Source: an uncultured Alphaproteobacteria bacterium (GTDB taxonomy: Bacteria; Pseudomonadota; Alphaproteobacteria; Rs-D84; CACZYB01). Taken from it: a DNA stretch of 64,000 bases. The translations under genes and the position numbers were made by a program. Under the pieces are notes generated by a model that was given only the letters and a program-made list of their open reading frames with translations, was not told the DNA's origin and ran no database searches. Where the stretch lies: assembly GCA_944392955.1 (NCBI GenBank), contig CALXYK010000004.1, positions 3,419-67,418 on the forward strand, given 5' to 3'. This document shows, piece by piece, positions 15,894 to 39,164 of the stretch. Each line of letters starts with the position of its first letter. Within the stretch, counting starts at the first letter, position 1.

Positions 15894-15946
15894 ATTAAAT
15901 CTCCTATAACAAATCAATGATAACACAAAAAAGGCAATAGTGCAAT

Positions 15947-20473: not shown

Positions 20474-21286
20474 ATGACAAATAATGCAAAAGTAATAGTT
20501 GTTGGTAATGAAAAAGGTGGTAGTGGAAAATCTACACTTTCCATACATTTGGCAATTGCATACCTTTATTCCGGATATAAGGTCGCAACAATAGATTTAG
20601 ATGGAAGACAAGGCACACTCACCCATTACATAGAAAACAGGGTAAGATATGCAAATGAAAAGAACCTTGATTTGCCTATGCCTGAACATCTTGTTGTTAC
20701 ACCTTCACAATTTTCCAATAGACGAAGTTCTAATGAAGATGAGGAACAACTTGATGCCGAAATCAAGGATTTAAAAACAGAATACGATATAATAATAATT
20801 GATACACCCGGAACATATAGTCATCTTTCCAATGCGGGACATAAAAATGCGGATATTTTAATTACTCCGGTAAATGATAGTTTAGTTGACATTGATGTCA
20901 TTGCAAACATTGACCCTAATACAAAGGAAATAATATCAGAATCTCAGTATACTAATAACATAAGAAATATTCAAAAAATAAGAAAAGATATAGGAAAGGA
21001 TGATCTATTTTGGATTGTATTAAGAAACCGAATTTCACACATAGACGCAAAAAATAAACGAGAAGTTGACAACATTTTAAAAAAATTACAAACACAACTT
21101 GGTTTTACATATATTTCAGGAATAGGTGAAAGAGTTGTATACCGCGAAATGTTTTTAAAGGGACTAACTATACTTGATCTTTTAAAAACAGGAACAGACG
21201 AAATTACAATATCACACATCGCAGCTAAAAATGAACTTTTAACAGTTCTAAATACAATAAATATCCCTTTAAAACAAGATATATAA
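20474..21286 (+). CDS. mipZ: ParA-family ATPase MipZ (division-site positioning, FtsZ-polymerisation inhibitor)
   Basis: Motifs VIVVGNEKGGSGKST, LDLDGRQGT, IDTPG, TPVNDSLVDID, VLRNR and VVYREMF. These match the Caulobacter MipZ pattern as I recall it. Confidence 0.75.
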   Translation: MTNNAKVIVVGNEKGGSGKSTLSIHLAIAYLYSGYKVATIDLDGRQGTLTHYIENRVRYANEKNLDLPMPEHLVVTPSQFSNRRSSNEDEEQLDAEIKDLKTEYDIIIIDTPGTYSHLSNAGHKNADILITPVNDSLVDIDVIANIDPNTKEIISESQYTNNIRNIQKIRKDIGKDDLFWIVLRNRISHIDAKNKREVDNILKKLQTQLGFTYISGIGERVVYREMFLKGLTILDLLKTGTDEITISHIAAKNELLTVLNTINIPLKQDI

Positions 21287-23632: not shown

Positions 23633-25136
23633 TTACAATCAACCTTTCTGGAACAGCAAATGTTTTAGCCAACCACAAGGCAACTGCCTTTTTATCAACT
23701 ATTGCCAATGCTTCTTCTCCCAACTCTGATAAAGATTTTATCCAACCTAAAATATTTTCAGCATCTCTAACCGCCTGATTTCTAGCAAGAGGTGATTGAT
23801 ATTTCAAATCTACTTCATGGCCATTAACCATGATATCGGAAATTTCACCCCTACGTCTTAATATAGAAATTGCTCTTAAAATAACTGGTGTTAAAAATTC
23901 GGATTGTAATCTTCCATAGGTTGCTCCTAAAATTCTGCTCATTTGATTTGTTCTTTCTAAAACTTCTGTCGCAGTCATTTTAGTAGTAGAAAACGAAGAT
24001 AACTGATCTACCAATAAACTATGATTTATTTTTGCCCGTAAATCTGATAAAACTAATTGAGATACATCAAAATCCGCACCAGTCCTAAGTGGTGTAAGTC
24101 CACTAGATCCAACTGCCTTTGGAATTATAGTTCCCGGAGCAAGAGTAATATTAGAAATATTTAAAACCCCATCATCATCTGCTTGCCATACACCACTAAC
24201 TGCAATACTAGCATTTTTTAAAATCAACTCCACAACTTTATTCGCAGTTTTAATATCGGGCAATGCTTTCATCACTGGCGATCTTCCATATACTTCTGAT
24301 GGAATTTTCAACCACCTGAAACAAATAAACGGAGAATATGCAAAAACACCAGTTTTCAAAACAAACATTTCATTATTTGTTAAAAGTTTATCTGCATCAT
24401 TAACAAAAGCGACATAATTATAACCTTGTTGACCACTAGGTGTAATTCTTGGCAATACTGCTTCTATAACACAAATTTTTTCATCAGGTTTTTTAGAAAT
24501 AATATTCAGCTGTTTATCATCAAATTTAAAATTAGGAAATCTAAGTTTTAAATTTTCCAAAGTCAAAATTGATTTTCTAAAAACAGTATCTAATTTACCA
24601 TTAACATTTTCTTCTAATGCAATTTCATTCATAGGAATTGCTGTAAAATTAAATGCGGTTGTTTCACCAACGCTATTTTCCTCAAATAACATTACCGCTG
24701 TTCCAACAGTAATTAAATCTAAATAACATTGATGAGCCTCAACATAAAAATTAGACCTATCAAAATGAGATTGCAAAACTTTTTGAATATCATCTAATGC
24801 CTTAAATTTTTCTTGTTTATCCCCATTATCTTTATCACAAGCATCAACACCGAAACCCAAACCAAACCATTTTGACCAAGGCGGAGTAAGTTGAGCCAAT
24901 AAACTACCTGCTAATTGTTCCACACCAGATTCAGCAGTAGAATCAAAAATATCAACATTTTTCTTTTTACCATTGGAAATAGAAGTAAATAAACCACTTT
25001 TTTGAGGCAGTGCATAATCATAACATTCACTCCAATGATTTTCCCATTCGGCCCTTTTTTCCATGGCTTTCTGATATCTAGCATAGATTTTAAAAAGTTC
25101 TGTTTCATCAACAATATATTTATTATTTTCAATCAT
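23619..25136 (-). CDS. phage portal / head-to-tail connector protein (T7 gp8-like)
   Basis: 505 aa. The N-terminal pattern (YARYQKAMEKRAEWENHWSECYDYALPQ ... LAGSLLAQLTPPWSKWF) parallels T7 gp8 (YERLKNDRAPYETRAQNCAQYTIP ... LASKLMLALFPMQTWM) as I recall it. Confidence 0.75.
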   Translation of the reverse strand: MIENNKYIVDETELFKIYARYQKAMEKRAEWENHWSECYDYALPQKSGLFTSISNGKKKNVDIFDSTAESGVEQLAGSLLAQLTPPWSKWFGLGFGVDACDKDNGDKQEKFKALDDIQKVLQSHFDRSNFYVEAHQCYLDLITVGTAVMLFEENSVGETTAFNFTAIPMNEIALEENVNGKLDTVFRKSILTLENLKLRFPNFKFDDKQLNIISKKPDEKICVIEAVLPRITPSGQQGYNYVAFVNDADKLLTNNEMFVLKTGVFAYSPFICFRWLKIPSEVYGRSPVMKALPDIKTANKVVELILKNASIAVSGVWQADDDGVLNISNITLAPGTIIPKAVGSSGLTPLRTGADFDVSQLVLSDLRAKINHSLLVDQLSSFSTTKMTATEVLERTNQMSRILGATYGRLQSEFLTPVILRAISILRRRGEISDIMVNGHEVDLKYQSPLARNQAVRDAENILGWIKSLSELGEEALAIVDKKAVALWLAKTFAVPERLIVNADE

Positions 25137-25212: not shown

Positions 25213-26928
25213 TTAGTTATTATTCTTTTTAAATATTGCTGGAATTTCCAAAGTTTCTTCCATTTTTTTTATCATTTCCATCAAATCAGTCTGTTGACTT
25301 TCTCTTTTCTGTTCATCCAAACTTCCAGCCAAAAATACCACATTATCATCTTCTTTTTTTTCTTCTTTCTTAGAAATTGTGAAATCCAATTCTTTATCCA
25401 AAGATAACTTTACATCTTTATCACTACCAAAATTTTCTACATCATCAAAGAAATTATCTTCCTTTGATTCACCTAATAAATCAAAGAATGATGACAAAGA
25501 ACTTTTCTTTTTACCATTTCCACCACCATTGTCCGGAGGAGTTGGTTCATCATCATCATTATCTTCTTTTTTTGCAACCAAATCCATAGGTTCAGATTCG
25601 GAAATTTTTTGTGCTTCTCTATTTATAAAATCATCAATACTAGAAGGTGTATTTTGTTTTATAAAACTATCAAAGGAGTTTTCCTTTTCAAAATTTTCCA
25701 CTTCCTCCGTATTTTCAGAAAACAAAGCATCTGCTCCAAAATCACCTAAAACATTTTTTACATCTTTATCAAAAGTATCATCTTTAATAGGTAATGGTTT
25801 TTCCTCATCTTGACTATTTATATCATTATCAAACGAAGAAAAAGATGAGGTTGTTTTTTCAATACTATTATATGTATTAACATTTTCCTTCATACTGGGA
25901 AAAGTATTTAACTCATCTCTATGAATATTTTTTATTCCTACATTTTCAGATAATCCAGTTGCAATTATCGCGACCTTTAATGAATCGTCCATAGATACAT
26001 CAAAACAAGTTCCAAGATAGAAATTTGTATCATCACTATCAATAGAAGCCCTAATAGTATTCATAACTTCGGCAGGTTCGTCCAAGGATAAATTTTCAGG
26101 ATTAGCCGTTATGTTCACAAGGACTGATTTTGCCCCCCTTATATCATTTCCTTGAAGCAAAGGATTTAACAAAACACCTTCTACTGCCTTTAATGCCCTA
26201 TTTTCGCCACGTTGAACCGAAGTTCCTATTAAAGTTCTACCACTTTTTTCCATTACCGCACGAATATCAGCAAAATCCAAATTTATTGTTCCAGGAATTC
26301 TTATCAAATCGGTAATATTTCTAACTCCGTCATAAAGGACATTATCAGAAATTTTAAACGCATTCAAAAAAGTCATCTGTTTATCAACAACATTATAAAG
26401 ATTCTGATTAGGCAAAACTATATAAGAGTCGACATTAGGAATTAAATTATCAATCGCATCTTTTGCAATTTTTTCCTTCTTTTTCCCCTCAAAATCAAAC
26501 GGCGTTGTTACAATAGCAACGGTTAAAATACCCTTTTCCTTTGCAATAGAGGCAATCACAGGCAATGCACCACTTCCTGTTCCCCCACCCATACCAGCAG
26601 TTAAAAATAAAATATTTGAATTTTTGATTAAATCAGCAATTTCACCACTTGATTCTTCTGCTGCCTTTTGACCTATTTCAGGTCTAGAACCGGCACCAAA
26701 ACCTTTCGTAGTTTGCTTTCCCAGTTGGATTTTTTTCGGCGACTTTGATTGTAATAATGATTGAGCATCAGTATTGGCAACAACAAACTCTACACCATCA
26801 ATTCCCTGCTCTATCATATTATTAACAGCATTACAACCAGCACCACCAACCCCCATTACCATAATTTTTGGAATAAAATTTTGAATCTCATCATCAAGAG
26901 ATTTATAACCAAAATTTCCATCAAGCAT
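25213..26928 (-). CDS. ftsZ: cell division GTPase FtsZ
   Basis: Tubulin signature GGGTGSGA, GVGGAGCNAVN, T7 loop NLDFADI. Long disordered acidic linker. Conserved C-terminal FtsA-binding peptide (LEIPAIFKK). Start set at the Met preceded by AAGGGGGA. Confidence 0.95.
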   Translation of the reverse strand: MLDGNFGYKSLDDEIQNFIPKIMVMGVGGAGCNAVNNMIEQGIDGVEFVVANTDAQSLLQSKSPKKIQLGKQTTKGFGAGSRPEIGQKAAEESSGEIADLIKNSNILFLTAGMGGGTGSGALPVIASIAKEKGILTVAIVTTPFDFEGKKKEKIAKDAIDNLIPNVDSYIVLPNQNLYNVVDKQMTFLNAFKISDNVLYDGVRNITDLIRIPGTINLDFADIRAVMEKSGRTLIGTSVQRGENRALKAVEGVLLNPLLQGNDIRGAKSVLVNITANPENLSLDEPAEVMNTIRASIDSDDTNFYLGTCFDVSMDDSLKVAIIATGLSENVGIKNIHRDELNTFPSMKENVNTYNSIEKTTSSFSSFDNDINSQDEEKPLPIKDDTFDKDVKNVLGDFGADALFSENTEEVENFEKENSFDSFIKQNTPSSIDDFINREAQKISESEPMDLVAKKEDNDDDEPTPPDNGGGNGKKKSSLSSFFDLLGESKEDNFFDDVENFGSDKDVKLSLDKELDFTISKKEEKKEDDNVVFLAGSLDEQKRESQQTDLMEMIKKMEETLEIPAIFKKNNN

Positions 26929-27033
26929 TTTTTCCCCCTTTTGACTTCTTTCCTTAATTATATCATAAAAAAAGGTAAAAGTTAAGAGATAAAAACATAA
27001 AAACAAATAATTTTATTTTTTTAAGCAAAAAAA

Positions 27034-27486
27034 CTAAGAACCAACAAAATTGTCCAATGCCTTTTTGCATGCCTCCGAAGCATCTATCAACTTATTTATA
27101 TTAGAAAGAGCACCAGCAGACACACCAAGAGACAATACATTCGCACCTGTTGCAATACCAGAAGAAACCAAAGAAATAGTTCTATTTTTTTCTAGATTTT
27201 TCATATCATCAATGTCTATTTCTCCAGAACTTTTTGCTACATTATTAGCAGATAATGCAGTTGAAGTAGCAGATCCAGCCGTCGCAACAGCCGAAGTAAC
27301 ACCAGTTGTAATAGATTGAGCCTTCAAACTATTCAAAACAGATCCATCAAATTTACATGCAGAAATCACATCTGAAATATATGGTTCTTTCTTTCTTACA
27401 CTATCCGAAGATAATTTTGCCTCTGCACCAAAGGATAAAAAAGAAGCCGACACAACAAAAACTAAACTATAAGATAAAAACTTCAT
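27034..27486 (-). CDS. secreted Ala/Ser/Thr/Gly-rich protein
   Basis: Start at the Met with a GGAGG ribosome-binding site. Signal peptide MKFLSYSLVFVVSASFLSFGAEA. Low-complexity A/S/T/G segments. The C-terminal motif is similar to the C-terminus of the upstream 612-aa protein. Confidence 0.5.
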   Translation of the reverse strand: MKFLSYSLVFVVSASFLSFGAEAKLSSDSVRKKEPYISDVISACKFDGSVLNSLKAQSITTGVTSAVATAGSATSTALSANNVAKSSGEIDIDDMKNLEKNRTISLVSSGIATGANVLSLGVSAGALSNINKLIDASEACKKALDNFVGS

Positions 27487-27487
27487 T

Positions 27488-29326
27488 TTAATCCTCCATT
27501 CCACTAACTTCTGCATTATATGATGAATAAGCATTATTTAAGGTTCTAATACTATCTTCACATTGTTTTAAATTTGTTATTGCATCTTCTATCGTAGCAA
27601 GGGATACAAAACTTACAACAGATGCAGTTCCACTAGCAAGAGACGAAGCCGCACTTAACCCAACCTGCCATTTATCAAAATCTTTTGCTGAAGCCAAAGC
27701 TTTACCACTAGCATCTCTTAACTCATGTATTTTTGTTTTATTACTCTCTACTATTGCTTGTTTACTTGAGATAGATTCTAATTCTGCATTTTTTTGAGCT
27801 AAAAGTTCATTTTTATTTATTTTTTCGCTCTCTTTTTCTTGTTTAACCTCATTTTCAATTTGTCCTGGTTCAGATTTTTCAAGTTGGTCATTAACATCTT
27901 TTAATTTAATATTTAAATCCTCAATAACCTTGTCTATATTATCCATTTGGGACTTATAGTCATTACATTTATCAACATTTTCCTTTGCATCGTTTATTTT
28001 ATTATTTAACTCTTTTATTGTTTTTTCCTTCTCTTCCTTCTGGGATTTTAATTTGGAAATGGCACTCATTTTAGCTTCCTCTAATGCAGAATCTGTTTCA
28101 TTATTATCAGCATCCAATTCTCCCAAATCTTTCATAAGGACATCTATTGAATCATTAAGCCCCAATACCGCCTTTTTTGCATTTGCCAAACTTTCTTCAT
28201 TTGTTTTGTTGTCTGAAAGTTTATTTTCACAGGCTAAATTATTATAACTATTCTTAATAGTCGTTTGTTCTTTTTTTTGTTTTGCAATAACTTGCTCTAA
28301 AGCATCTTTTTCTGCTGTTAATTTAGTTTTTCTATCTTCTATTGTTCCATATTTAATAGTAGAAACTCCATTCAAATCTGTATTTTTTGATAAAATAATT
28401 TGTCCCTCTTCCAAATTTGATATATCACTATCAATAGACTCTATTTCTGTATTTAACTTAGCTACTTCTCTTTCTAACTTTTCTTTCTCCCCATCCAAAC
28501 CTTGACCTATACTTGTATTTTTAGTTCCAAGGCTCTTCTCTGCATCGTGATAATAAATTGCATCTTTTGTATTTTTAAGTGATAATGCACCAACAACTGT
28601 GCTACCTGTACTTAACACACTACCAACACCAGATGTCAAGGAAACCCCATAAGTTATTTGGGATTTAAGTTTTTCCATATCATTCACAAATGCACCACAT
28701 TTTTCTCGTGCAGTTTGAACTGCTGAATTTATTTTTTTCTCATATTCTGAAACATCAACAAAAATCTCGCTTTCCAAATACATAGAGGCGATTAAATTTC
28801 CCGCCCTTGTTACATAAAGTTTTCTTCTATCCGAAGATAATCCAGAGTTATCAACAACCGAACTAATCTGTGAATTTGTTCCATTTAACAAAGAAACCGA
28901 ATAACTATATTTAGGAAGCAAATCTACACATTTTATCTCCCCTTCCGCAGATACAACATCCATCGCCCCCGAAGAATCCATTCCAACCAATTTCATATAA
29001 GGACCGAAACAAAACTTTTCATCCAATTTAGCCGTTCCATTAGTATAATAATAATTATATACTGATGGTAATAACATAGTACTTAAACTATACGATTCAT
29101 CATAATATAATTTATCCAAATGCACCGAGTTTAAAAACCTTAACACAGATCCAGAAATATCCGAAGAATTAGAAGAGGAACTTGACGAAGTCGTACGTCC
29201 CGAAGATCTGCTATTTGGACTTCTACTGCCACCTGAATTAACTACACGAGCAGCGAACAATCCTCCATCTGAAAACAAATAAGATAAAAAGACCAATCCA
29301 CAAAGTAAATTAAACTTCTTTTTCAT
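27488..29326 (-). CDS. large secreted coiled-coil protein
   Basis: Signal peptide. Ser-rich low-complexity stretch. About 300 aa of Lys/Glu-rich heptad-like coiled coil. C-terminal A/S/T-rich domain. Confidence 0.55.
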   Translation of the reverse strand: MKKKFNLLCGLVFLSYLFSDGGLFAARVVNSGGSRSPNSRSSGRTTSSSSSSNSSDISGSVLRFLNSVHLDKLYYDESYSLSTMLLPSVYNYYYTNGTAKLDEKFCFGPYMKLVGMDSSGAMDVVSAEGEIKCVDLLPKYSYSVSLLNGTNSQISSVVDNSGLSSDRRKLYVTRAGNLIASMYLESEIFVDVSEYEKKINSAVQTAREKCGAFVNDMEKLKSQITYGVSLTSGVGSVLSTGSTVVGALSLKNTKDAIYYHDAEKSLGTKNTSIGQGLDGEKEKLEREVAKLNTEIESIDSDISNLEEGQIILSKNTDLNGVSTIKYGTIEDRKTKLTAEKDALEQVIAKQKKEQTTIKNSYNNLACENKLSDNKTNEESLANAKKAVLGLNDSIDVLMKDLGELDADNNETDSALEEAKMSAISKLKSQKEEKEKTIKELNNKINDAKENVDKCNDYKSQMDNIDKVIEDLNIKLKDVNDQLEKSEPGQIENEVKQEKESEKINKNELLAQKNAELESISSKQAIVESNKTKIHELRDASGKALASAKDFDKWQVGLSAASSLASGTASVVSFVSLATIEDAITNLKQCEDSIRTLNNAYSSYNAEVSGMED

Positions 29327-29454: not shown

Positions 29455-29531
29455 TGGCAAGGTAGCTCAGTCGGTAGAGCAAAGGACTGAAAATCCTTGT
29501 GTCGGCGGTTCGATTCCGCCCCTCGCCACCA
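29455..29531 (+). tRNA. tRNA-Phe (anticodon GAA); the 3' acceptor strand looks irregular
   Basis: Manual cloverleaf. D-arm GCTCAGTCGGTAGAGC. Anticodon stem AAGGA/TCCTT with loop CTGAAAA. T-arm GGCGG-TTCGATT-CCGCC. By my count the acceptor has an A4-C69 mismatch and one extra C between the T-stem and the 3' acceptor strand. Confidence 0.8.
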
Positions 29532-29538
29532 AAAAATC

Positions 29539-29570
29539 AACTCCTTACTTCAAATGTAAGGAGTTTTTTC
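29539..29570 (+). terminator. rho-independent terminator after tRNA-Phe
   Basis: Hairpin CTCCTTAC-TTCAAAT-GTAAGGAG followed by TTTTTT. Confidence 0.5.
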
Positions 29571-29584
29571 ATAAATACATTTTA

Positions 29585-29765
29585 AACATCTGGTTCGTAT
29601 ACTCGTATAACACGCTAAGCCAAAAAAAATCCCCTGTTGCGAGGAGAGAACACGAACGAAGTTGTTCTTAATGACGAGCGGTGTTAGCGAGGAATTTTAG
29701 AACATCTGGTTCGTATACTCGTATCACCCGCTAAGCCAAAAAAATCCCCTGTTGCGAGGAGAGAA
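29585..29765. repeat. two ~66-bp direct repeats (29585-29650 and 29701-29765), the second ending in a stem-loop
   Basis: The units read AACATCTGGTTCGTATACTCGTAT(A/C)AC(A/C)CGCTAAGCCAAAAAAA(A)TCCCCTGTTGCGAGGAGAGAA and differ at 3 positions. In the second unit CCCCTGTTGCG pairs with CGCAACAGGG at 29788-29797 around a GA-rich loop. Confidence 0.6.
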
Positions 29766-30134
29766 GGAGGAAAGGAGAGAAAAGGAACGCAACAGGGAAT
29801 AACTTTGAAAATAAATTTAAAAATATACTTAAATTCACTTCACATTCTCGATTCTTAATATACTCGACAAAAAAAGTCAAGCGATTCTTTTTTTGGCTAT
29901 TTTTTAAAGTGATTTAAAAAGCAAAAAAAACACTAAAATCAAATAGTTAAAAAAATGATTTTTTTTAATAAGAATCAATATTGTCTATAAAAATCTACTA
30001 TCTAAAAGAAGCAAAAACACGATTCTTTTAACACAAAAAAAGAATCGACTCCGAATCTTTTAAAACACAGTAAAGTTTTAGCAATTTAATTACCAAATAG
30101 CAAATAAAAAAACACATTTTTACAAAAAAAATAT

Positions 30135-30232
30135 CCCTTAAGTCGAGGAGAGAGAGAAAATAAGGAGGGAATGACTTAAGGGATCTTCGGTTTTCACCGA
30201 ATTTGCCGAAATGAGGGGTCGTCTCGGCAAAC
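30135..30232. other. cluster of three consecutive hairpins in non-coding DNA (candidate structured RNA or recombination site)
   Basis: CCCTTAAGTC-(28-nt GA-rich loop AGGAGAGAGAGAAAATAAGGAGGGAAT)-GACTTAAGGG; TTCGG-TTTTCA-CCGAA; TTTGCCGA-AATGAGGGGTCG-TCTCGGCAAA. Confidence 0.4.
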
Positions 30233-30351
30233 TTTATATTCGTATTAACGAATTGCCTTCATTATACAAATCATTTATACTTTGTCAAGATATTTTTGCA
30301 AAAATATTTTTTCTGTATAAAACAATATAAAAATTCCCATAAAAACAACAA

Positions 30352-30951
30352 CTAAACTTTATATATTGTATCAATAGTATGTGGCGTCCCTATAAAAATT
30401 TGCATACCATCTGGAACTAAAATAAAATTGTATTCCAGTAATCTCTCCCTTAAATCAAGCCTTTTTTGATATGTATCACAATTTTTGGGAACCTCTACAT
30501 CATCAAAAATTATAACATCCGCCCTACTTCCCGTCGCATTAGACAATAAGCCAACTGCTAACATAGAGGGATCCCTTAACTCCTTACTTCTCACAACGGT
30601 AAAACTACCAGACGCCCAATCTGATTTTTTCTTTGGCCTAATATCTTCCATTAAAGGATTAACCTCTATAATACGTTTTACATTTTTAACCATTTTTCTC
30701 GCTAACATAGTATCAGCAGCCACCACCAAAATTCTTGTATTAGGATTTTTATACAAAAGCCAAGCACAAAATATTCCAACAATAGTTGACTTCCCACTAC
30801 TTCGAAAAGCCATCAACAAGCCCCTTTTTTTATCTGATAAATAGATACTTTCAAGCCATTTTGCAATTTTAATATGATGTTCTGGCGTATCTATTTCTTG
30901 TAATTTATTCCAAGCCAACAAAAACTTTTCAAAATTTAACTTTCTTTTCAT
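30352..30951 (-). CDS. phage large terminase, N-terminal ATPase-domain fragment (T7 gp19-like)
   Basis: Walker A LMAFRSSGKST. Walker B ADVIIFDDVE. Coupling motif IFIGTPHT. Nearly colinear with the T7 gp19 N-terminal region as I recall it (LQAFRGIGKSF...RADIIIADDVEIP...YLGTPQTE). The ORF stops right after the ATPase domain. Confidence 0.85.
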   Translation of the reverse strand: MKRKLNFEKFLLAWNKLQEIDTPEHHIKIAKWLESIYLSDKKRGLLMAFRSSGKSTIVGIFCAWLLYKNPNTRILVVAADTMLARKMVKNVKRIIEVNPLMEDIRPKKKSDWASGSFTVVRSKELRDPSMLAVGLLSNATGSRADVIIFDDVEVPKNCDTYQKRLDLRERLLEYNFILVPDGMQIFIGTPHTIDTIYKV

Positions 30952-30952: not shown

Positions 30953-31393
30953 TTATAAAATATTCAAACTATAAAAAGCAGAATCCAACAATTTCAAAGC
31001 ATCTTTGTCTTTTGAAAGTAAATTTTTGTTTTTTTTGTAATTATAATTCAATTCATTTGTTTTTAAATCTAAATCTGAAAAATAATCATTATTTTTAATA
31101 TCTTCATCTACTTCTTTTTCTATATTACCAAGCAAAACAGCCGAAGAACCATCTGTAAAATCTAAACCATTTGCAGCCATAGTAGCCTTTTTCGTAGCAA
31201 GTTTAGATTTTAATAAATCTGTTTTTTCCTGCTCATATACTTGTTGTTTCTTTTTAATTTCAGCATCTGCTAATGCTTTCTCCTGTTTGGCCATTTCTGT
31301 CGCTGCCTTTTTAGCATCATTAGATTCTTTTATATCCATAACAGTTTTTGCAACATTTGCAACACCAGCGACAACACCTGTACTTACACCCAT
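30953..31393 (-). CDS. hypothetical coiled-coil protein (possible small terminase or internal virion protein)
   Basis: 146 aa. Lys/Glu/Ala coiled-coil segment. Its stop codon is 1 nt from the terminase ATG. Function not assignable. Confidence 0.35.
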   Translation of the reverse strand: MGVSTGVVAGVANVAKTVMDIKESNDAKKAATEMAKQEKALADAEIKKKQQVYEQEKTDLLKSKLATKKATMAANGLDFTDGSSAVLLGNIEKEVDEDIKNNDYFSDLDLKTNELNYNYKKNKNLLSKDKDALKLLDSAFYSLNIL

Positions 31394-31403: not shown

Positions 31404-33311
31404 CTACTTTATTATATCTATTAACATTGAAAAACTTAGAATTTTTAATTTATAAGGTTTTGAACTTTGTATTTTAAACAAAGGAATTTCATAATTTTTT
31501 ACAAATCCTTTACCTCGTATTCTTAAATCCCCCGTATAATAAGGCAAACTTTCATCAAAACAATTTCCACTATCAAAATTCAAAAAGACAATAGTCCTAA
31601 GCCCAGAACCTGTATCAATTTGAACTAATGGAGTATCCATAACCCTTAATGTCAATTCCAACAATCTAACAGACTTTGGAATATAACTCCAACTTATAAA
31701 TGTAGGTAATGGACAATATATATGAGTAAAAGGCAAACCAATTATAATATTTTTAGAAGTCTTAGGTAATATTATTTTATTATCTACCACTTCTAAATCA
31801 TATATATAATCATCTGCATTAACTACAACCTTTTTACCATTTAAAAATGAAAGATTTTCTACCATATCAATACCTGTTTCTGATGTAATTTTTTTAGAAC
31901 AATCACAAGAAACATCTTCATCAAAAACTTCTAAGAAATAATTACTTCCTCGTTGAACTACAACATAAACTTTATCAACCAAAACAGACAAGGAAAGTAT
32001 TTTACCATCTGTTTCATATCTTACCCAAGCATTTATATTATATGTTTTATTTGTTAACAATACAGCCAAAGTTCCATCTTCTTGAACAACATATAACATT
32101 CTTTTTTTGACATTATAATCCTGCTCAATCGGACTATTTAATAAGTGATTAGATAACAAAATTAAATCTTGCGAAGAATAATTTTCACTTAAATCACCAT
32201 AAAAAAACTCTCTTATCTCTTTTTTGTTTCTAGCCACAAAAATAGTAGAACCTTCTACTAATTTAGGGGCTATATATCTATCAGAAATAGACCCTATCTT
32301 AGTTTGTTGAGAAACTATTATATTAGACGGAGTAAGAGGACTTCCCGTAATCATCCATTCAGAGTCCGAAGTAAACACCTGTAAATGCCTACCTGAAAAT
32401 ACTGATAATATTTCATTAACCTTATCAGAAAATATATCAAACTCTATTGATTCATCATCAAGTCCGGTTCCCAAATCAAAATTCATAAAATCACCAGTCT
32501 TAGAAAACCACAACCTATTGCTTAAACTTTTTGAACCACCAATTACCAATCTATTTTGGTGAAACGCAATACTTTTAGGATAACCACGGCGTTGTGAAAA
32601 ACTCTGTTCTTGCCAATTTGCATCAGCATTAACATCGGATAAATTTGATTTTACCTCTGCATTTGCAATAGTTTCAGATTCAATAGAAGTAATAAGAACT
32701 TCTCCACCATCTAATGTAATCCTAATATTAACCCAATTATCAGAGAACAAATTTTTACTTGCTGTAATTTGAATATTACCTGTTTTTGCAGACGGAGTAA
32801 GAGTTATACCTTCTGTATCATCAAATCTATTAAATGGTTGACAAGAATAACCATAAGTTGCATTTGTAGCATATATCCAAGACGAAATTGACCAAGTTTC
32901 ATTTAACAAATCGTATTTTAATATTTGAGGTTCAATATCTGGATGAGCCAGATATAACTCACTACCTTTCTGCGACCATCTTAAATTTTTTAAATCAGCA
33001 ATCGCATACGGCGAAGTCAAAGAAGACACTTTTTCTTCATTTTCATCATAAATATCAATCGTATTATTTCCAAAAAACAAAATAAAAAGTTTTTCACTGG
33101 AATATTCAAAAGAAATTATTTTACCTTCTGTTGACAAAGTATCAACATATCTCAGACCTTCCCTTCTTTCTATTCCACCCGTAGCAATCACATTCATATT
33201 TGTAATTGTCATAGCCCCACTTTTGTAAGCGGTTGAATTTCCCCTACCAAATAAATTTCTTGATAATTCTCCAAACGAAAAGTTAGACATAGTAATAGTT
33301 TGCTTTACCAT
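31404..33311 (-). CDS. tail tubular protein B-like (T7 gp12-like)
   Basis: 635 aa. Positioned after a gp11-like gene. The mid-region pattern (ILSVFSGRHLQVFTSDSEWMITGSPLT...IFVARNK) parallels T7 gp12 (LFSEELLIWSDEAQFVLTASGTLT...VYFASPR) as I recall it. Confidence 0.6.
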   Translation of the reverse strand: MVKQTITMSNFSFGELSRNLFGRGNSTAYKSGAMTITNMNVIATGGIERREGLRYVDTLSTEGKIISFEYSSEKLFILFFGNNTIDIYDENEEKVSSLTSPYAIADLKNLRWSQKGSELYLAHPDIEPQILKYDLLNETWSISSWIYATNATYGYSCQPFNRFDDTEGITLTPSAKTGNIQITASKNLFSDNWVNIRITLDGGEVLITSIESETIANAEVKSNLSDVNADANWQEQSFSQRRGYPKSIAFHQNRLVIGGSKSLSNRLWFSKTGDFMNFDLGTGLDDESIEFDIFSDKVNEILSVFSGRHLQVFTSDSEWMITGSPLTPSNIIVSQQTKIGSISDRYIAPKLVEGSTIFVARNKKEIREFFYGDLSENYSSQDLILLSNHLLNSPIEQDYNVKKRMLYVVQEDGTLAVLLTNKTYNINAWVRYETDGKILSLSVLVDKVYVVVQRGSNYFLEVFDEDVSCDCSKKITSETGIDMVENLSFLNGKKVVVNADDYIYDLEVVDNKIILPKTSKNIIIGLPFTHIYCPLPTFISWSYIPKSVRLLELTLRVMDTPLVQIDTGSGLRTIVFLNFDSGNCFDESLPYYTGDLRIRGKGFVKNYEIPLFKIQSSKPYKLKILSFSMLIDIIK

Positions 33312-33318: not shown

Positions 33319-33873
33319 CTACTTTCTTATATCCACAAGTGGGAAATTTACAAAAGATTTATTAGTTTCTTGCATACTATCAATAGATTTTGCCTCTCTT
33401 ATTTCCGAATTAAATAATTTATAAAATAAAGAATATTTACTAGTATCATTTAACAAAGAAATAGAAAGTTCAGCCGCCATCAGATAAACAAATGCAGAAA
33501 TAAACACAGGTGTAAAATATTCTTCGTTCACATTTGCAATATAATCCAAATACACCTCTTCATCATTACAATAAAGATAATTTCCTAAAATTTTATAAGG
33601 CGAATTAGAAGAAATTTTTAATGCTCGCAAAAAATCACCTGGCAAAGCATAAGAATAGCCATACTCACTTTTACTATCTTCAACAACTCTATTTAATTTC
33701 TGAGAAGCAGTCGCAAAACTCCACGAAAATATAGAAAGCAATTTATATTTTAGCGTAGAATATAAACTTCCACATATTTCAGCTTCCGGAGTTCCCTCAT
33801 CAAAAGACACAATTGCATTAGCCCCAATTTTGTTAAGGGCTTTGGAACATAAATCAATACTTGAAAAACTCAT
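33319..33873 (-). CDS. tail tubular protein A-like (T7 gp11-like)
   Basis: 184 aa. The N-terminal pattern ALNKIGANAIVSFDEGTPEAEICGSLY parallels T7 gp11 [30 protein letters not shown] as I recall it. Located between the capsid gene and gp12-like, as in T7. Confidence 0.55.
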   Translation of the reverse strand: MSFSSIDLCSKALNKIGANAIVSFDEGTPEAEICGSLYSTLKYKLLSIFSWSFATASQKLNRVVEDSKSEYGYSYALPGDFLRALKISSNSPYKILGNYLYCNDEEVYLDYIANVNEEYFTPVFISAFVYLMAAELSISLLNDTSKYSLFYKLFNSEIREAKSIDSMQETNKSFVNFPLVDIRK

Positions 33874-33931: not shown

Positions 33932-34189
33932 TTAAGATGCTGGTGAAATAATATCAGAAACCACTACTACACCAGAAGTAATAGAACTTACAACAAATAT
34001 ACTTGTTGTCAAAGTTCCATCTATATCCATAGAACTAACAATCAAATCGCCAACATTAAAAATATTAGCAACAGAATTAAAATAATTTTGACCAGTAACA
34101 ACAGTTTTCTCATCATCTGTTTTATAATGCCACAAAGTAAAACCATTTGAATAAGCTAACACAGATAAATTTTTAGAATTCATACTCAT
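33932..34189 (-). CDS. hypothetical small protein
   Basis: 85-aa ORF between the capsid and gp11-like genes. No motifs. Confidence 0.3.
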   Translation of the reverse strand: MSMNSKNLSVLAYSNGFTLWHYKTDDEKTVVTGQNYFNSVANIFNVGDLIVSSMDIDGTLTTSIFVVSSITSGVVVVSDIISPAS

Positions 34190-34217: not shown

Positions 34218-35048
34218 TTAAGCAATAGTTGCATCATCATCACAAAGTATTTTAACAATACCAGTATCGTCTATAAGTTTCGCTCCTTGGCTCATACAAT
34301 TAGAAATAAAATGAGCTGCCCTTTCACCATGCCAGGTAATATCAGTTTTCACATCACAACCAGACGCATGTCCAACAGCATTTTTATGATAAATAAAACA
34401 ACTTCTTACACCTTCATTGCAAGGAAGAGCATTATGCAAAATCCAATTTATACCCATCCATTTTCTAGATTCTGTTCCTTTAAGTAATGGATAATTATCA
34501 CCAACATAATCGGCATTTGAAAATTCCTCTAAACTTAAAAGTTCATTCCATTGATGAACACCAACAACACCAAATCTTTGACCATCATCAGGCACATCAT
34601 TATTGTTAAGTATTTCCAAAGCTTGAAATATCTTTGATTTAGTAAAACCTACACCAGAAGTATCAACAGAATTAGTTGCATTGTTAAGTTCATTAATAAT
34701 AAGTTCATCACTCTTTCTACCTAAGGCATAAGCGCCAGCAGAAGCAACAACTCTTCTTTCATCTACATTTGTTTTTAATTCATCAAGTTCATCAACCCAA
34801 TCTCCTGCATAGAAATCAGACAACACACATTCAACAGGAGTATGATCTAAATTCATAACAGGAACAAGTCCGTGTCTAGCTTTTGTACTTGCAAGACCTT
34901 TACCTATTTTTTGAAAGGTAGTTGAGGTTCCTCTTACATCACTTTTTGTTCTAACAGTAGAACGTAATTTTGTTCCCATCTGTTGAAATGCAAGATGAAC
35001 TTCTGCCTCAAATTGTTTTATAAATACTTTATCAATAGAAACTGACAT
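34218..35048 (-). CDS. phage major capsid protein (T7 gp10-like, short form)
   Basis: 276 aa. The N-terminal segment (VFIKQFEAEVHLAFQQMGTKLRSTVRTKS...TFQKIG) and C-terminal segment (HKNAVGHASG) parallel T7 gp10A as I recall it. Follows the scaffold gene as in T7. Confidence 0.7.
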   Translation of the reverse strand: MSVSIDKVFIKQFEAEVHLAFQQMGTKLRSTVRTKSDVRGTSTTFQKIGKGLASTKARHGLVPVMNLDHTPVECVLSDFYAGDWVDELDELKTNVDERRVVASAGAYALGRKSDELIINELNNATNSVDTSGVGFTKSKIFQALEILNNNDVPDDGQRFGVVGVHQWNELLSLEEFSNADYVGDNYPLLKGTESRKWMGINWILHNALPCNEGVRSCFIYHKNAVGHASGCDVKTDITWHGERAAHFISNCMSQGAKLIDDTGIVKILCDDDATIA

Positions 35049-35155
35049 AATTTATATCTCCTTATTTTTTATTAAACTAACGATAGGTTAAAACCTACCA
35101 ATTAAAAAAATCCGCCATATAAATGACGGATTAAAAGTATAATTAAACCCAAATT

Positions 35156-35722
35156 TTATTTATTATCTTTCTTCACAAGAACCGGTTCTATACTACTTAA
35201 TAAGCCATGCATAGAAGTCAATGTAAATAATACAGACACAAAAGATAATATAAATATCTCAATAGAAGATCTTATCAATTGCGGTGAATATCTAGTCAAC
35301 AATAAAACATCGACATAAAATATAACCGAAAAGATAAACGATAATAAAAAAGCAATTAAAGATTGCACCTTAAAAGTGTTCTTAAATATATATTCCACTT
35401 TTAATTTTCTAGATTTAATCATAATAAATTTTAAAATCAAACACACAAATACGAACGGAACATAAAATTTTATAATAGAGAAAATAGCATCAACAACAGC
35501 AATAAAGAAAATCTCTATTGGATTCATTGAAAATCTCAATGTTTCATAAACATCCAATTCTTTCATAAAAGAAAAGGCAAAAAACACAATAACAGAAAAA
35601 ACTAATGTAAATTTTAATATTCCTTTTGTATGATTATAAAAAAATCCCAACAAAGAACCTAAAAAAGAAGATTTTTTACTTTCAACTTTCTTAGTCTTAT
35701 CGTTGGGATTTGATACCAACAA
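35156..35722 (-). CDS. hypothetical 4-TM membrane protein
   Basis: Four hydrophobic helices. No motifs. Inserted between the scaffold and capsid genes. Confidence 0.4.
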   Translation of the reverse strand: MLVSNPNDKTKKVESKKSSFLGSLLGFFYNHTKGILKFTLVFSVIVFFAFSFMKELDVYETLRFSMNPIEIFFIAVVDAIFSIIKFYVPFVFVCLILKFIMIKSRKLKVEYIFKNTFKVQSLIAFLLSFIFSVIFYVDVLLLTRYSPQLIRSSIEIFILSFVSVLFTLTSMHGLLSSIEPVLVKKDNK

Positions 35723-35730
35723 AGAAACTT

Positions 35731-35997
35731 CTATTTCTTCGCTACTTTTTTTTTTGCTACTGGTTTAACTGGCTTTTTAACAGAAGCAACTTTAACAGCA
35801 GCTTTTTTTACAACAATTTTTTTCTTAGGAGCTGCTTTAACAACTACTTTTTTTGCAGGTGCTTTTTTAGCAACTACTTTTTTTGCAGGAGCCTTTGTAG
35901 CAACTACTTTTTTAGCTGGAGTTTTTTTTGCAACTGGTTTAGAAGCTACTTTTTTAGCAGCAGGTTTTGCAGTTTTTTTAATTATACTTTTAAACAT
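35731..35997 (-). CDS. histone H1-like Lys/Ala-rich DNA-binding protein
   Basis: Start set at Met15 with an AAGGAGAG ribosome-binding site. 88 aa of PAKK/VAKK repeats (KPAAKKVASKPVAKKTPAKKVVATKAPAKKVVAKKAPAKK...). Confidence 0.6.
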   Translation of the reverse strand: MFKSIIKKTAKPAAKKVASKPVAKKTPAKKVVATKAPAKKVVAKKAPAKKVVVKAAPKKKIVVKKAAVKVASVKKPVKPVAKKKVAKK

Positions 35998-36097
35998 ATT
36001 CCTCTCCTTATTAAACAAAAGACAACTACAATATACCATATAAAAAAAAAGACTGCAACATCAAAAATAAAAAAAAGTAAAAAAAATTTAAAAATTT

Positions 36098-36685
36098 TTA
36101 TTCATCACCATATAAAAATTTAAATCCATCATCAACTTTTTTAATGAAATCTTTATCTCCATCTCTCCAATACTTTGGATCCTTCATCATTTCTTTTAAT
36201 TTTTTCTCTGTAATACCACATTGAGATTCACCAGATTTTGCCATAACTTTCGGCTCATTGGATGTCATCATATTATACAAAGCAAGCACACCATAAAACG
36301 AAGAATTCAAAGAATTATAAATTTCCTGAGGAACATTTTTTTCTGCCCACAAAGAAATTTGACGAGAAATTTCATCAAATCTTTCTTCTCCACCAAAATA
36401 ATTTTCAAGTTTTGAAAGTTCTCTGTAAGCACGAAATTCCTCTATTACTTCTTGAATCTTTGGAATCATAATTTCAGCAGCAAGGTCATAAACCAATTGG
36501 ACCTGAGCATTTGTGAAACCTGCTTCTTTTAAACGTTTATTGACATTTTGATCAACTTGTAAAAATTTATTATGAAGCACTATTTGATAGTCTTTATCAG
36601 CACCATCAGTTTTCAAAGCCAAATCTAAAACATCTGTGTTTTCACGATCAGTATTTTTATTTTGATCAACTTTTTGATTATACAT
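36098..36685 (-). CDS. phage scaffolding protein (T7 gp9-like)
   Basis: The C-terminus (ERFDEISRQISLW...KLKEMMKDPKYWRDGDKDFIKKVDDGF) parallels the T7 gp9 C-terminus (ERFDALYNHLETH...EMIKAMSDPRYRTDANYRRQVEQKVIDSNF) as I recall it. Located upstream of the capsid gene. Confidence 0.6.
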   Translation of the reverse strand: MYNQKVDQNKNTDRENTDVLDLALKTDGADKDYQIVLHNKFLQVDQNVNKRLKEAGFTNAQVQLVYDLAAEIMIPKIQEVIEEFRAYRELSKLENYFGGEERFDEISRQISLWAEKNVPQEIYNSLNSSFYGVLALYNMMTSNEPKVMAKSGESQCGITEKKLKEMMKDPKYWRDGDKDFIKKVDDGFKFLYGDE

Positions 36686-36806: not shown

Positions 36807-37025
36807 TTACTTTTTTTTAGAATTTAAACTATCAATTTTCTCTGTTAAAGTTGTAGAAAGTTCTTGTCCCAAAAATATTACACCAAACAAAGGAATAACA
36901 ACTTGTAGCAAATCTACCAACCCTACATCGCCAACTAAATAAGCGGCAACACAAGAAATCACACTAACAATCGCAGTAATCAAAGTTTTTTTAGTTTGTA
37001 AAAAACCACCTGTAATTATACTCAA
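36807..37025 (-). CDS. small two-TM membrane protein (holin-like topology)
   Basis: 72 aa. Two hydrophobic helices and a charged C-terminus (KKK). Confidence 0.3.
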   Translation of the reverse strand: MSIITGGFLQTKKTLITAIVSVISCVAAYLVGDVGLVDLLQVVIPLFGVIFLGQELSTTLTEKIDSLNSKKK

Positions 37026-37049: not shown

Positions 37050-37496
37050 TTACATACAAATATCATAGAAATAAAAATCATCTATAATATATTTCGGAGA
37101 AACATTTTTAGCCCAAAAAGGACATTTCTCCTTTTTATGAAACTCAATTGCATCAAATTTTTTACTTTCTACATTATTTAAAGACAAAACATCTCCTGCA
37201 ACCTTTAAACAAGTTTTAAAGTAATCAGAATTTGTATCAATTGAATCCATATTTTTTAAATTCTTCCATGCAGGGAAAATATTAACAGATGTCAAAAGTT
37301 TTACTATATCAGGAAATGTTTCTGATATTTCCACTTCATAAAAAAATCTATTAACAATAGTCATCGCAACAGATTTTAACAAAAGATTCGAAGCATCTTT
37401 TTCCAGAGAATATAAACTTTTTGCTAAAATAAATTTGTTAATATTGGAATTTATTTTCAATTTTTTCAAAAGCTTTTCTCTATTTTCAATAAACAT
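37050..37496 (-). CDS. hypothetical protein
   Basis: 148-aa ORF. No motifs. Confidence 0.3.
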   Translation of the reverse strand: MFIENREKLLKKLKINSNINKFILAKSLYSLEKDASNLLLKSVAMTIVNRFFYEVEISETFPDIVKLLTSVNIFPAWKNLKNMDSIDTNSDYFKTCLKVAGDVLSLNNVESKKFDAIEFHKKEKCPFWAKNVSPKYIIDDFYFYDICM

Positions 37497-37792: not shown

Positions 37793-37949
37793 AACTATTT
37801 AAAAATGAAAAAACCCTCTCTGAATAAAAAGGGCATAAAAAAACTAATGCAGATACAATTATCCCATTAGTTGAAAAACACTATACCACATTTTTACAAA
37901 AATGTCAAGAACATTTTAAGAACAAAATTAACTTTTATTTAGAAATCAG

Positions 37950-38537: not shown

Positions 38538-39164
38538 ATGAATAAATTCATAAAAATATTATCCATTACAGCCATACTTTGTTCATGCAGTGGAATTTAT
38601 ACACGTATGGCAAATAGTGATTTGGAAATCAAAACTAATATGACTAAAACAATATGGTTAACTCCAACAGATCCTGCTCAAACAAAAATATATGTTCAAG
38701 CAAGAAATACATCTGATAACAAAGAATTCAATGATTTGAGAACATATATAAAATCCTCATTAGAAAGCAAAGGTTATACAATAACAAATAATCCAAACGA
38801 AGCAACATTTATACTACAAACTAATGTATTAAAGGCAATTTTGAATAATAATTCAGTAAGCAAATCTAATACCCAAAACGATGCTCTTACAACGGCGGTA
38901 GGTGTAGGATATGCAGTAGGAAGTAAAAATGATGACCTAACCGCAGTAGGTGCCGGCCTTGCAGCAGGACTTGCATCTATGTATTTTGATGCAAAAACAA
39001 AAGATGCAACATACTATGTTCAAACGGATATAAAAATAACCGAAGGAAATAAATCTTATACAACATCTTTAAATGTAGATGCAAAAAAGGTAAATTTAAC
39101 AGTAGAAGAAGCATCCATTAAAATGAAGGAAGCAATTGCGAACTCTCTTTCTGGACTATTCTAA
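38538..39164 (+). CDS. traT: TraT-like surface-exclusion / complement-resistance outer-membrane lipoprotein
   Basis: Lipobox LCSC. Colinear with F-plasmid TraT as I recall it: LEIKTNMTKTIWLTP vs LEVKTQMSETIWLEP; NVLKA; GAGLAAGL; KVNL...EEA. Confidence 0.75.
   Translation: MNKFIKILSITAILCSCSGIYTRMANSDLEIKTNMTKTIWLTPTDPAQTKIYVQARNTSDNKEFNDLRTYIKSSLESKGYTITNNPNEATFILQTNVLKAILNNNSVSKSNTQNDALTTAVGVGYAVGSKNDDLTAVGAGLAAGLASMYFDAKTKDATYYVQTDIKITEGNKSYTTSLNVDAKKVNLTVEEASIKMKEAIANSLSGLF

Follow-up and report, generated by a model that had tools for sequence, protein, structure and literature searches.

Small, basic proteins rich in lysine and alanine are known from several biological contexts. The chlamydial proteins Hc2 (HctB, PF07382) and Hc1 are small stand-alone proteins of short Lys/Ala-rich repeats that condense DNA non-specifically; hctB is a gene of the developmental cycle, and its repeat number varies between strains. 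PAKK/AAKK-type repeats also occur in the Burkholderia proteins of family NF038053, in BpH1 of Bordetella, in AlgP of Pseudomonas, and in the tails of HU/HupB. Other small and very basic proteins are IPI-III of phage T4, the protamines, and adenovirus protein VII. The T4 internal head proteins carry an N-terminal capsid-targeting sequence that is removed by the prohead protease, and they are found in the mature head. At the level of gene clusters, morons are additional genes that bring a promoter and a terminator along and lie between late genes adjacent in related phages (e.g., gene 15 of HK97), and the known gene transfer agents (GTAs) of the Alphaproteobacteria are HK97/siphovirus-like. Here, we analyzed a stretch of 64,000 nt of an uncultured alphaproteobacterium of the order Rs-D84 (GCA_944392955.1, contig CALXYK010000004.1, positions 3,419 to 67,418), which is called the window in the following. 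It contains a gene for a polycation of Lys/Ala repeats (the K/A gene) between the scaffold and the capsid gene of a T7-like head-tail gene module. This finding joins three known kinds, i.e., bacterial H1-like polycations, morons, and GTA-like viriforms, and the observation is real and far from chance.

An earlier note on this DNA had described an 88-aa open reading frame (ORF) that consists almost entirely of PAKK/VAKK repeats and is preceded by a strong ribosome-binding site, and both statements were borne out. The encoded protein (MFKSIIKKTAKPAAKKVASKPVAKK...VKKPVKPVAKKKVAKK) starts with MFKSIIKKTAKPAAKK and ends with VAKKKVAKK, and lysine (37.5%), alanine (21.6%), valine (19.3%), and proline (9.1%) together account for 87% of its residues. 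It contains neither D nor E; its isoelectric point (pI) is 11.5 and its net charge is +32. The Shine-Dalgarno motif AAGGAGAGG is located 3 bases before the ATG. The mechanical ORF extends further upstream to 36039, but the region 5′ of the ATG is a conserved untranslated leader in the relatives. The N-terminal motif is MFKSIIKK, and the C-terminus is formed by the conserved block IVVKKAAVKVASVKKPVKPVAKKKVAKK. Samples of the species to which the window belongs vary in repeat number, with protein lengths of 88 aa in the window, 138 aa (L004), and at least 133 aa (L008); assembly collapse could account for part of this difference.

The features of the window protein recur in the family. The averages for 69 members are 38% K, 29% A, 15% V, 10% P, and 0.5% D+E. 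All 114 aromatic residues of the family are found within the first 8 positions, where the motifs MFKSIIKK, MFGLKKKC, MFFGSKKK, and MAFTFLK occur, and the C-terminus is invariably KKK, KRK, or AKK. Cysteines are present near one or both termini in 58 of the 69 homologues, and the window protein has none. The length variation among relatives is always in frame. In the non-repeat ends, the ratio of nonsynonymous to synonymous substitution rates (dN/dS) is about 0.02-0.3 between species, and for the N- and C-terminal non-repeat blocks within the window's clade dN is 0.01-0.16 versus a dS of 0.2-0.9. These values are far below 1, showing that K/A is a constrained coding gene with purifying selection on the protein.

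Database searches did not yield homologues beyond composition. Pfam HC2 (PF07382) matched with 23.5 bits (E 6.9e-5), below its gathering threshold of 40 and by composition, and the Burkholderia-type H1-like family NF038053 of NCBIfam matched with 21.8 bits, below its cut-off of 80. The likeness to H1 and Hc2 that the earlier note had drawn therefore holds for the composition. Pfam revealed no domain beyond the sub-threshold HC2 match, and thus no eukaryotic H1/H5 winged-helix domain; the whole protein is composed of the repeat and short termini. A sequence search of the PDB gave no match at E <= 1. A single-sequence search returned one compositional eukaryotic match and missed variants of the same species, and an exact look-up returned one contig of 1.2 kb. 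A profile of 16 K/A members had 612 matches, which were rejected as homologues, as all of them are Lys/Ala tails on unrelated proteins (RsfS, HupB, DksA, CarD, SWIB); elsewhere, such tracts are appended to HU/HupB, RsfS, DksA, CarD, SWIB, and topoisomerase I. An exact scan of IMG/VR with a 13-aa motif hit 12 contigs, of which 7 contain the same module and the rest tails on other proteins; this narrow scan revealed no comparable stand-alone gene in other phage head modules. As the homology tools were blind to the K/A family, synteny was used instead.

The synteny was nearly uniform. A Lys/Ala/Val/Pro ORF of 52-165 aa on the same strand lies between the scaffold and the capsid gene in all 66 genome loci that hold both genes. 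With loci of at least 66% capsid identity and at least 700 nt of upstream sequence, such an ORF was found 194-787 nt upstream of the capsid gene, on the same strand, in 71 of the 73 loci from genomes and IMG/VR; all 58 loci of a second, metagenomic set also have it behind the scaffold gene. The window has no other ORF with this amino-acid profile, and K/A occurs once per locus, without a second copy, across 2.34 Mb of related DNA. In contrast, the ORF is missing from all 63 phage-type contigs (capsid identity 44-64%; canonical order portal-phrog_5977-scaffold-capsid-tail), wherever in the fetched DNA it was sought. The closest annotated phage relatives of the capsid are the human-faecal phage scaffold MT838907 (62% identity) and Pelagibacter phage EXVC031P (45%), in which the gaps between scaffold and capsid gene are about 20 nt and about 40 nt, respectively. 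The two genes are thus adjacent in the closest phages, which together with the 0/63 count shows that K/A and the membrane protein gene behind it (TM4, see below) are a true insertion relative to the phages, as the earlier note had claimed by comparison with T7. That note had also considered a captured host nucleoid gene; no relative carries K/A in a non-phage context, all have it at the same position, and no host paralogue was found as a source in the 2.34 Mb.

Three independent changes have occurred downstream of K/A, and none was seen between scaffold and K/A. First, TM4 was inserted downstream of K/A in the window's clade. Second, in one lineage (L180, termite-gut metagenome contig Ga0123356_10000237, region 5929-10000) a tRNA gene, RNase P RNA (222 bits), and three unrelated ORFs lie between K/A and the capsid gene, which is 3.8 kb away; K/A has stayed immediately downstream of the scaffold gene and its upstream neighbor TM72, about 130 nt behind the scaffold. 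In this lineage, the module is still being broken up by host genes. Third, one capsid gene (L058) has neither a scaffold nor a K/A gene within 4 kb. Thus, the linkage of K/A is to the scaffold gene and not to the capsid gene. As an observation on the side, a 438-aa ORF among the three inserted in L180 has an HExxH motif, which by itself suggests a metallopeptidase, and the other two are on the reverse strand. The roughly 4 kb upstream of the 71%-identical capsid gene of L058 (positions 1-4100; metagenome-assembled genome (MAG) 'Rickettsiaceae bacterium 4572_127') contain no ORF above 71 aa, and Rfam has no match there; the sequence may be decayed, it may use a different genetic code, or the assembly may be faulty.

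The reading that we favor, tentatively, is that the K/A protein condenses DNA as a polycation and is a partner in head assembly or packaging. In its favor are the conserved position, the absence from the phage relatives, the linkage to the scaffold gene, and the purifying selection. That it binds a polyanion, DNA or RNA, is quite probable judging from its sequence, and this can be assumed rather safely because Lys/Ala tracts elsewhere are appended to proteins with DNA- or ribosome-binding annotations (HU/HupB, RsfS, DksA, CarD, topoisomerase I). An extra, moron-like K/A cassette would have entered a T7-like podophage immediately after the scaffold gene, and the head-tail genes of this phage would then have been fixed in the chromosome of the ancestor of Rs-D84 (Candidatus (Ca.) Enterousia and relatives). 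As the free phage relatives are devoid of the gene, this add-on was probably acquired when the phage was domesticated. The protein would bind DNA non-specifically through its regularly spaced lysines, and would neutralize and condense it in connection with head assembly. The charges are opposite, with a pI of 11.5 for K/A versus 5.0 for the scaffold and 5.5 for the capsid, and most likely K/A would either enter the procapsid with the acidic scaffold or coat the DNA that is packaged by the split terminase. It could thus work in analogy to the basic internal proteins of T4 or to protamines; the conserved aromatic N-terminal motif could be a targeting signal, and the terminal cysteines of most homologues, which the window protein does not share, might lock the condensate. 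The larger picture of an undescribed T7-derived, GTA-like viriform of Rs-D84, the head of which is loaded with a protamine-like K/A protein, entering along with the scaffold and packaged together with host DNA, is doubtful but possible.

The comparison with the described systems shows likenesses and differences. Like Hc2 and Hc1, K/A is a small stand-alone protein of short Lys/Ala-rich repeats in a strain-variable number, and non-specific DNA condensation is presumed for it; unlike Hc2, it has Val/Pro-rich units of 10 aa and an aromatic N-terminal motif, and it sits in a phage-derived head cluster rather than being encoded by a gene of a developmental cycle. With the proteobacterial H1-like proteins it has the repeat type in common, but K/A is devoid of a folded domain and is confined to one lineage and one genomic position. 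As with T4 IPI-III, protamines, and adenovirus protein VII, a small, very basic protein is found, here encoded among head-assembly genes and with an acidic scaffold as partner. Its short N-terminal motif could act as a capsid-targeting sequence as in IPI-III, and most homologues have terminal cysteines like protamines. However, there is no sequence relationship with the T4 internal proteins, T7-type modules have no prohead protease, and packaging of K/A is putative. The cassette resembles morons in its position, its predicted promoter and terminator, and its companion, a small multi-pass membrane protein. It differs from them in that it is fixed order-wide instead of sporadic, its carrier is no longer a prophage, and its base composition is not deviant (G/C content of 0.315 for K/A and 0.247 for TM4, versus 0.30-0.34 for the neighbors and 0.302 for the window); the cassette is either ameliorated or native.

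If K/A works with the head, a domesticated phage particle can gain its own DNA-condensing protein. Its loading would be the first case of a histone-like internal protein in a podovirus-type particle, an innovation arising with domestication, and the small and easily expressed protein would offer a handle on the packaging of host DNA by a particle with a split terminase. The earlier note had connected compaction with a small capsid, since the capsid protein is shorter than that of T7. This argument does not hold, as PF19821 capsids of about 270-290 aa belong to normal podophages with genomes of 32-37 kb.

Several results weigh against a role in the head. The first are the transcription signals around K/A. 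The sequence TTGCAG-N17-TGgTATATT and the leader are kept in 9 of 9 members of the window's clade, one of them GC-rich, within the 100-nt spacer between scaffold and K/A; a simple sigma-70 scan left this promoter candidate unlisted, and its -35 hexamer matches at 3 of 6 positions. In the Enterousia clade, CTTTACT-N17-TAAAAT occupies the equivalent place, a conserved leader hairpin (AAGAACAAAA...TTTGTTCT) comes after it, and a GC-rich hairpin with a T-run lies directly after K/A. No terminator-like site was detected between scaffold and K/A, a point in favor of the head reading. A separate upstream region precedes the capsid gene and shows elaborate conservation in the Enterousia clade. K/A, with or without TM4, is therefore predicted to be the last cistron of the TM72-scaffold unit, with an additional promoter inside the unit and shielded from the capsid gene. 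This speaks against simple co-transcription with the capsid gene, which the earlier note had implied by placing K/A in a capsid-assembly operon: a terminator-like hairpin intervenes, K/A has its own conserved promoter-like element, and in L180 the tRNA, RNase P RNA, and three ORFs part it from the capsid gene. A predicted promoter and closing terminator of its own would be the signature of an independently expressed moron and not of a late structural gene.

The second result is the codon usage. The G/C content at third codon positions (GC3) is lowest in K/A among 45 window genes (0.079), followed by the gene for HU (0.10), and K/A has the lowest GC3 of all scored genes in 58 of 67 loci. With the amino-acid content taken into account, the observed versus expected numbers of G/C-ending Lys/Ala/Val/Pro codons are 5 versus 16.5 for K/A, 1 versus 7.8 for HU, and 9 versus 14.1 for the capsid gene, so that the synonymous-codon bias of K/A is as strong as that of HU and above that of the capsid and all other module genes. 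The bias suggests very high expression of K/A, which would be compatible with a stoichiometric particle component and would fit even better to a constitutively abundant cellular protein. A low GC3 of the capsid gene was considered as a high-expression signature in common with K/A; it is present in the window and was rejected because it does not extend across the relatives.

Furthermore, in a vertically inherited, stable, small genome synteny is weak evidence of functional linkage; dnaB is equally stably embedded. The 63 phage relatives examined have no K/A protein, and we know of no T7-like phage that needs or carries a protein of this type. We saw no T7 core protein of the gp15/gp16 type, no tail fibre, and no small terminase in the window, and DNA-filled particles are therefore putative only.

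These results lead to the foremost alternative, that K/A is a moron-derived, abundant cellular nucleoid protein of the H1/Hc2 type with its own promoter and an expression independent of the particle genes. It might compact DNA in a resting or dispersal stage like the chlamydial Hc1/Hc2, and its site behind the scaffold gene would be a historical accident. This is a possibility to be taken seriously, although we regard it as rather unlikely. It would explain the own promoter-like element, the conserved 5′ leader, and an own terminator in both clades, the HU-like codon bias together with the lowest GC3 in the 58 loci, the composition with its sub-threshold matches to Hc2 and the Burkholderia H1-like proteins, and the repeat number that varies from strain to strain. 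The purely cellular ftsZ, dnaB, tRNA, and rnpB genes interleaved in the same module also fit. However, K/A has never been parted from the scaffold in about 130 loci despite the three independent changes just downstream, it is found only in the lineage with the rearranged module and not in the phage relatives, and a paralogue is missing in 2.3 Mb of related sequence. Nor is there a gap to fill: the window contains a canonical HU homologue (14779-15048, minus strand; 46% identical to E. coli HupA and without a Lys/Ala tail), and an IHF-like gene is present in L053. A replacement of missing HU/IHF was thus rejected, and as a nucleoid protein K/A would be additional. If K/A nevertheless had this function, it would be a clean example of a moron that hundreds of species, with genomes of about 1 Mb, have kept as a fixed host chromatin protein.

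The next alternative involves TM4. Four hydrophobic stretches were found in this protein, one of which is 41 aa long and could make two membrane spans, in accordance with the 4-TM membrane protein of the earlier note. TM4 starts 8-11 nt after the K/A stop codon. A search of 5.8 billion proteins yielded 14 homologous clusters, which are 58-99% identical and all from the window's clade; full-length TM4 is present at 25-34% identity in L017 and L041, and L018 has a shorter, diverged protein of 142 aa at the same place that looks TM4-like by eye and has no tblastn match. Conserved features are the N-terminal segment KKSSF-GSLLGFFYNHT and the motif FxMNPIEI. TM4 matched no family in Pfam, PHROG, or NCBIfam. 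Its AlphaFold model has four long helices and a moderate-to-low confidence (predicted local distance difference test score, pLDDT, of 64.6), and a comparison with the PDB by Foldseek gave no match at E <= 0.001. The much larger Enterousia clade is devoid of TM4, and TM4 is therefore not required for whatever K/A does. It would be a later add-on of the window's clade alone, predicted to be co-transcribed with K/A, and our guess is a moron-type membrane protein, e.g., for superinfection exclusion or immunity.

On this background, K/A might not bind DNA at all and instead act on the membrane or envelope, as a lysis or permeabilization helper that leaves the cell with the particles or as a cationic toxin, with TM4 as partner, immunity, or export protein. 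The 8-11 nt spacing and the one predicted transcription unit in the window's clade would be in line with this, and so would the candidate lysis genes just upstream (a 72-aa holin-like and a 148-aa hydrolase-like protein, both assigned by eye and without family match). However, the Enterousia clade shows that TM4 is not an obligatory partner, K/A has no signal peptide or leader, its repeats are not amphipathic and contain a proline about every 10 residues, and Lys/Ala tracts in other proteins accompany nucleic-acid-binding domains. We consider a membrane function improbable.

Marginally more improbable still is an element-encoded silencer or regulator, i.e., a polycation that coats the AT-rich module or chromosomal DNA and keeps the potentially lethal genes for particles and lysis off. 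Nucleoid proteins of prophages that silence the very element encoding them have been described (PMC5137423), and the proposed function can be likened to that of CgpS, the xenogeneic silencer of a Corynebacterium prophage. The K/A gene appears to be independently expressed, as predicted, and several leader and terminator structures in the module suggest tight control. However, a low-complexity repeat protein has no evident sequence specificity, AT-richness cannot single out the module in a genome of about 30% GC, and an H-NS/Lsr2-type oligomerization domain is missing (no Pfam match beyond the compositional HC2). Lastly, a spurious ORF in an A/T-rich low-complexity repeat that is open by chance can be dismissed as practically refuted, since, although such DNA is open in several frames on both strands (a 137-aa plus-strand ORF at 35710-36123 is a mirror artefact of the repeat), frame, start codon, and ribosome-binding site are kept in about 130 loci that range in GC content from 0.30 to 0.53, the unique ends have a dN/dS far below 1, and all indels are in frame.

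The surrounding module (Table 1) contains a T7-like set of genes, with PF05396, PF19821, and PF12236 above their cut-offs and the tail tubular proteins A and B (TubA and TubB) recognized by PHROG. It deviates from the canonical T7 order with one large terminase gene, as the portal gene is relocated and the terminase is split. The order is TM72-scaffold-K/A-TM4-capsid-phrog_18004-tubA-tubB-internal virion protein-TerL(N) ... ftsZ-portal-TerL(C) in the window's clade and TM72-scaffold-K/A-capsid-...-TerL(N)-[dnaB, a double helix-turn-helix (HTH) gene, and an unassigned gene, all on the opposite strand]-TerL(C)-portal in the Enterousia clade. TerL(N) and TerL(C) match consecutive parts of phrog_38 and are about 6.7 kb apart; the roughly 5.2 kb from TerL(N) to the portal hold tRNA-Phe, two unassigned genes, and ftsZ. 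The split is kept in 68 related loci, whereas the halves are adjacent and in order in the three phage-type loci that reach the terminase (L111-L113); a functional two-subunit terminase could be formed. In 63 of the 68 loci, dnaB is located between the halves, and in 56 lipB is found upstream, an arrangement that is repeated in at least 40 independent metagenome contigs. The 148-aa protein and TM72 may be an endolysin-holin pair upstream of the scaffold.

A scan with one genome per species revealed close capsid relatives in 396 species genomes, and the best 80 of these are all MAGs of gut, rumen, or termite-gut Alphaproteobacteria (Ca. Enterousia, "Rickettsiales bacterium", RUG/RGIG bins). The lineage is the order Rs-D84, the genomes of which are mostly smaller than 1 Mb (PMC12306168). 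Across the lineage, the capsid is 70-87% identical, compared with 30-65% for TubA, TubB, portal, and scaffold, and 42-80% for full-length FtsZ alignments, taken as the best tblastn segment including the variable linker of FtsZ. The module capsid thus evolves more slowly than FtsZ when its linker is included, and judged by sequence its constraint is unusually strong for a phage-derived capsid protein. Outside the module, the window, scanned to about 45.9 kb, consists of ordinary chromosome (ftsQ, ftsA, ligA, obg, def, fmt, HU, MacAB-TolC-type efflux), and no integrase, polymerase, or RNA polymerase was found among the ORFs of this part. Because of the 396 species genomes, the conserved host flanks, the interleaved dnaB and ftsZ, and the lack of detected replication and integration genes, the module appears to be a vertically inherited, rearranged, domesticated element and a GTA-like candidate, not a prophage. 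The phage module of the earlier note is thus a fixed, rearranged T7-like head-tail set of the order Rs-D84.

A structural cluster without replication and integration genes at a fixed chromosomal position across species is also what characterizes GTAs and viriforms. Like GTAs of the RcGTA, BaGTA, VSH-1, and FpGTA types, the module has a vertically inherited head-tail-terminase set and candidate lysis genes. It differs from them in its T7-type ancestry, the split terminase, the interleaved essential host genes, and the dedicated polycation, and it is known from its genes alone. FpGTA of Faecalibacterium was called the first podovirus-like GTA-like element in 2026 (PMC12946183). No paper describing the Rs-D84 module was found in the searchable literature. 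Whichever function K/A has, a strongly conserved and apparently undescribed T7-like module extends across a whole order of abundant, uncultured bacteria of gut and rumen, and it may provide a route for the transfer of genes in animal gut microbiomes.

Table 1. Positions of the K/A gene, its signals, and the genes of the T7-like module in the window
Feature	Position	Strand	Remarks
Sigma-70-like promoter candidate of K/A	36030..36058	minus	TTGCAG, 17 nt, TGgTATATT (extended -10); conserved; prediction only
Shine-Dalgarno motif AAGGAGAGG of K/A	36001..36009	minus	within conserved 5′ leader GTCTTTTGTTTAATAAGGAGAG
K/A protein gene	35731..35997	minus	88-aa Lys/Ala/Val/Pro-repeat polycation; syntenic orthologues in 71/73 + 58/58 loci
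Tandem array	35796..35935	.	30-nt unit, 4.7 copies, encodes KKAPAKKVVA (10 aa); K/A repeat core
TM4 membrane protein	35156..35722	minus	188 aa, TTG start; 4-5 hydrophobic segments; clade-restricted orphan
Terminator-like hairpin	35109..35132	minus	10 bp, free energy -12.6 kcal/mol, then T-run; between TM4 and capsid; clade-conserved
148-aa protein (u148)	37050..37496	minus	SleB/CwlJ-type cell-wall hydrolase-like motif by eye; no Pfam match at E 1e-3
TM72, 72-aa protein	36807..37025	minus	directly before scaffold; holin-like by eye (hydrophobic stretches, charged C-terminus); no family match; 60/80 loci
T7-type scaffold (capsid assembly) protein	36098..36685	minus	PF05396, 35.1 bits vs. cut-off 27.1; acidic, pI 5.0
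Major capsid protein	34218..35048	minus	PF19821, E 1.7e-75; 70-87% identical across host lineage; pI 5.5
85-aa protein	33932..34189	minus	phrog_18004; always after capsid
Tail tubular protein A	33319-33873	minus	phrog_394 / phrog_376 match tail tubular proteins
Tail tubular protein B	31404-33311	minus	phrog_394 / phrog_376 match tail tubular proteins
Internal virion protein	30953-31393	minus	
TerL(N), ATPase half of large terminase	30352-30951	minus	separate ORF, 199 aa; phrog_38; Walker A and B by eye
ftsZ	25213-27006		directly upstream of portal, inside module
T7-type portal	23619-25136	minus	PF12236 above cut-off
TerL(C), nuclease half of large terminase	22751-23632	minus	separate ORF, 293 aa; phrog_38

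Several further observations concern the module and its regulation. In the Enterousia clade, the spacer between K/A and capsid contains a conserved series of elements in the roughly 250 nt upstream of the capsid gene (L020-L090; e.g., L068, 9774-10000), consisting of the terminator, the palindrome CAGTCAGA...TCTGACTG, GGATAATCC...GGACCC, and GGCGC...TGCATAACC; a related motif, GGGATAACA, is present in L014-L016. An operator, a leader RNA, or a promoter are possibilities. In the window, a near-consensus promoter (TTGACA-17-TG-TATAGT, 37880-37908, minus strand) is followed by a terminator-like hairpin (37813-37834), and both precede the first gene of the phrog_29007-u148-TM72-scaffold unit. Antitermination control has been described for the Caulobacter GTA, and by analogy such a control would fit the leader-terminator layout at 37813-37908.

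The 820 nt between TerL(N) and tRNA-Phe (29531-30352) contain no ORF of at least 50 aa. They hold a consensus promoter (TTGACA-N17-TATAAT, around 30258-30287, minus strand), a direct repeat of about 115 nt, and three hairpins with GC stems and CU-rich, anti-Shine-Dalgarno-like loops (at 29600-30190). This stretch had no significant Rfam match, and the Rfam matches in the window are three tRNAs only. The hairpins and the repeat may be small RNAs or degenerate remnants of attachment sites. IhtA is an antisense regulator of hctA, and the hairpins were also considered as antisense regulators of the ribosome-binding site of K/A; this was rejected, as a match to its reverse complement was absent at up to 3 mismatches, as was an Rfam family.

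The ftsZ gene lies apart from ftsA and ftsQ (6306-8301) and within the module in L011-L018, while in Enterousia dnaB, the double-HTH gene, and an unassigned gene take that gap on the opposite strand (63/68 loci); essential cell-cycle genes are thus interspersed among the particle genes. Two proteins encoded between tRNA-Phe and ftsZ, a 612-aa Ser-rich coiled-coil protein with an N-terminal hydrophobic segment (27488-29326, minus strand; found in L041 as well) and a 166-aa protein (27034-27534, minus strand), are conserved at 26-49% identity in L011-L013. They match no family, and they could be unrecognized particle components (fibre or core) or surface proteins. Two contigs of one MAG (RGIG4147; L065 and L086) each contain a capsid gene with 72% identity to that of the window, which could reflect two copies, a strain mixture, or bin contamination. 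Near the module, the chromosome contains genes of conjugation or plasmid type: there is a TrbC/VirB2 pilin-like gene (15273-15926) and a ParA-like gene next to tRNA-Arg (20474-21286), and a gene for a TraT-like lipoprotein (38538-39164) adjoins the winged-helix regulator of the module.

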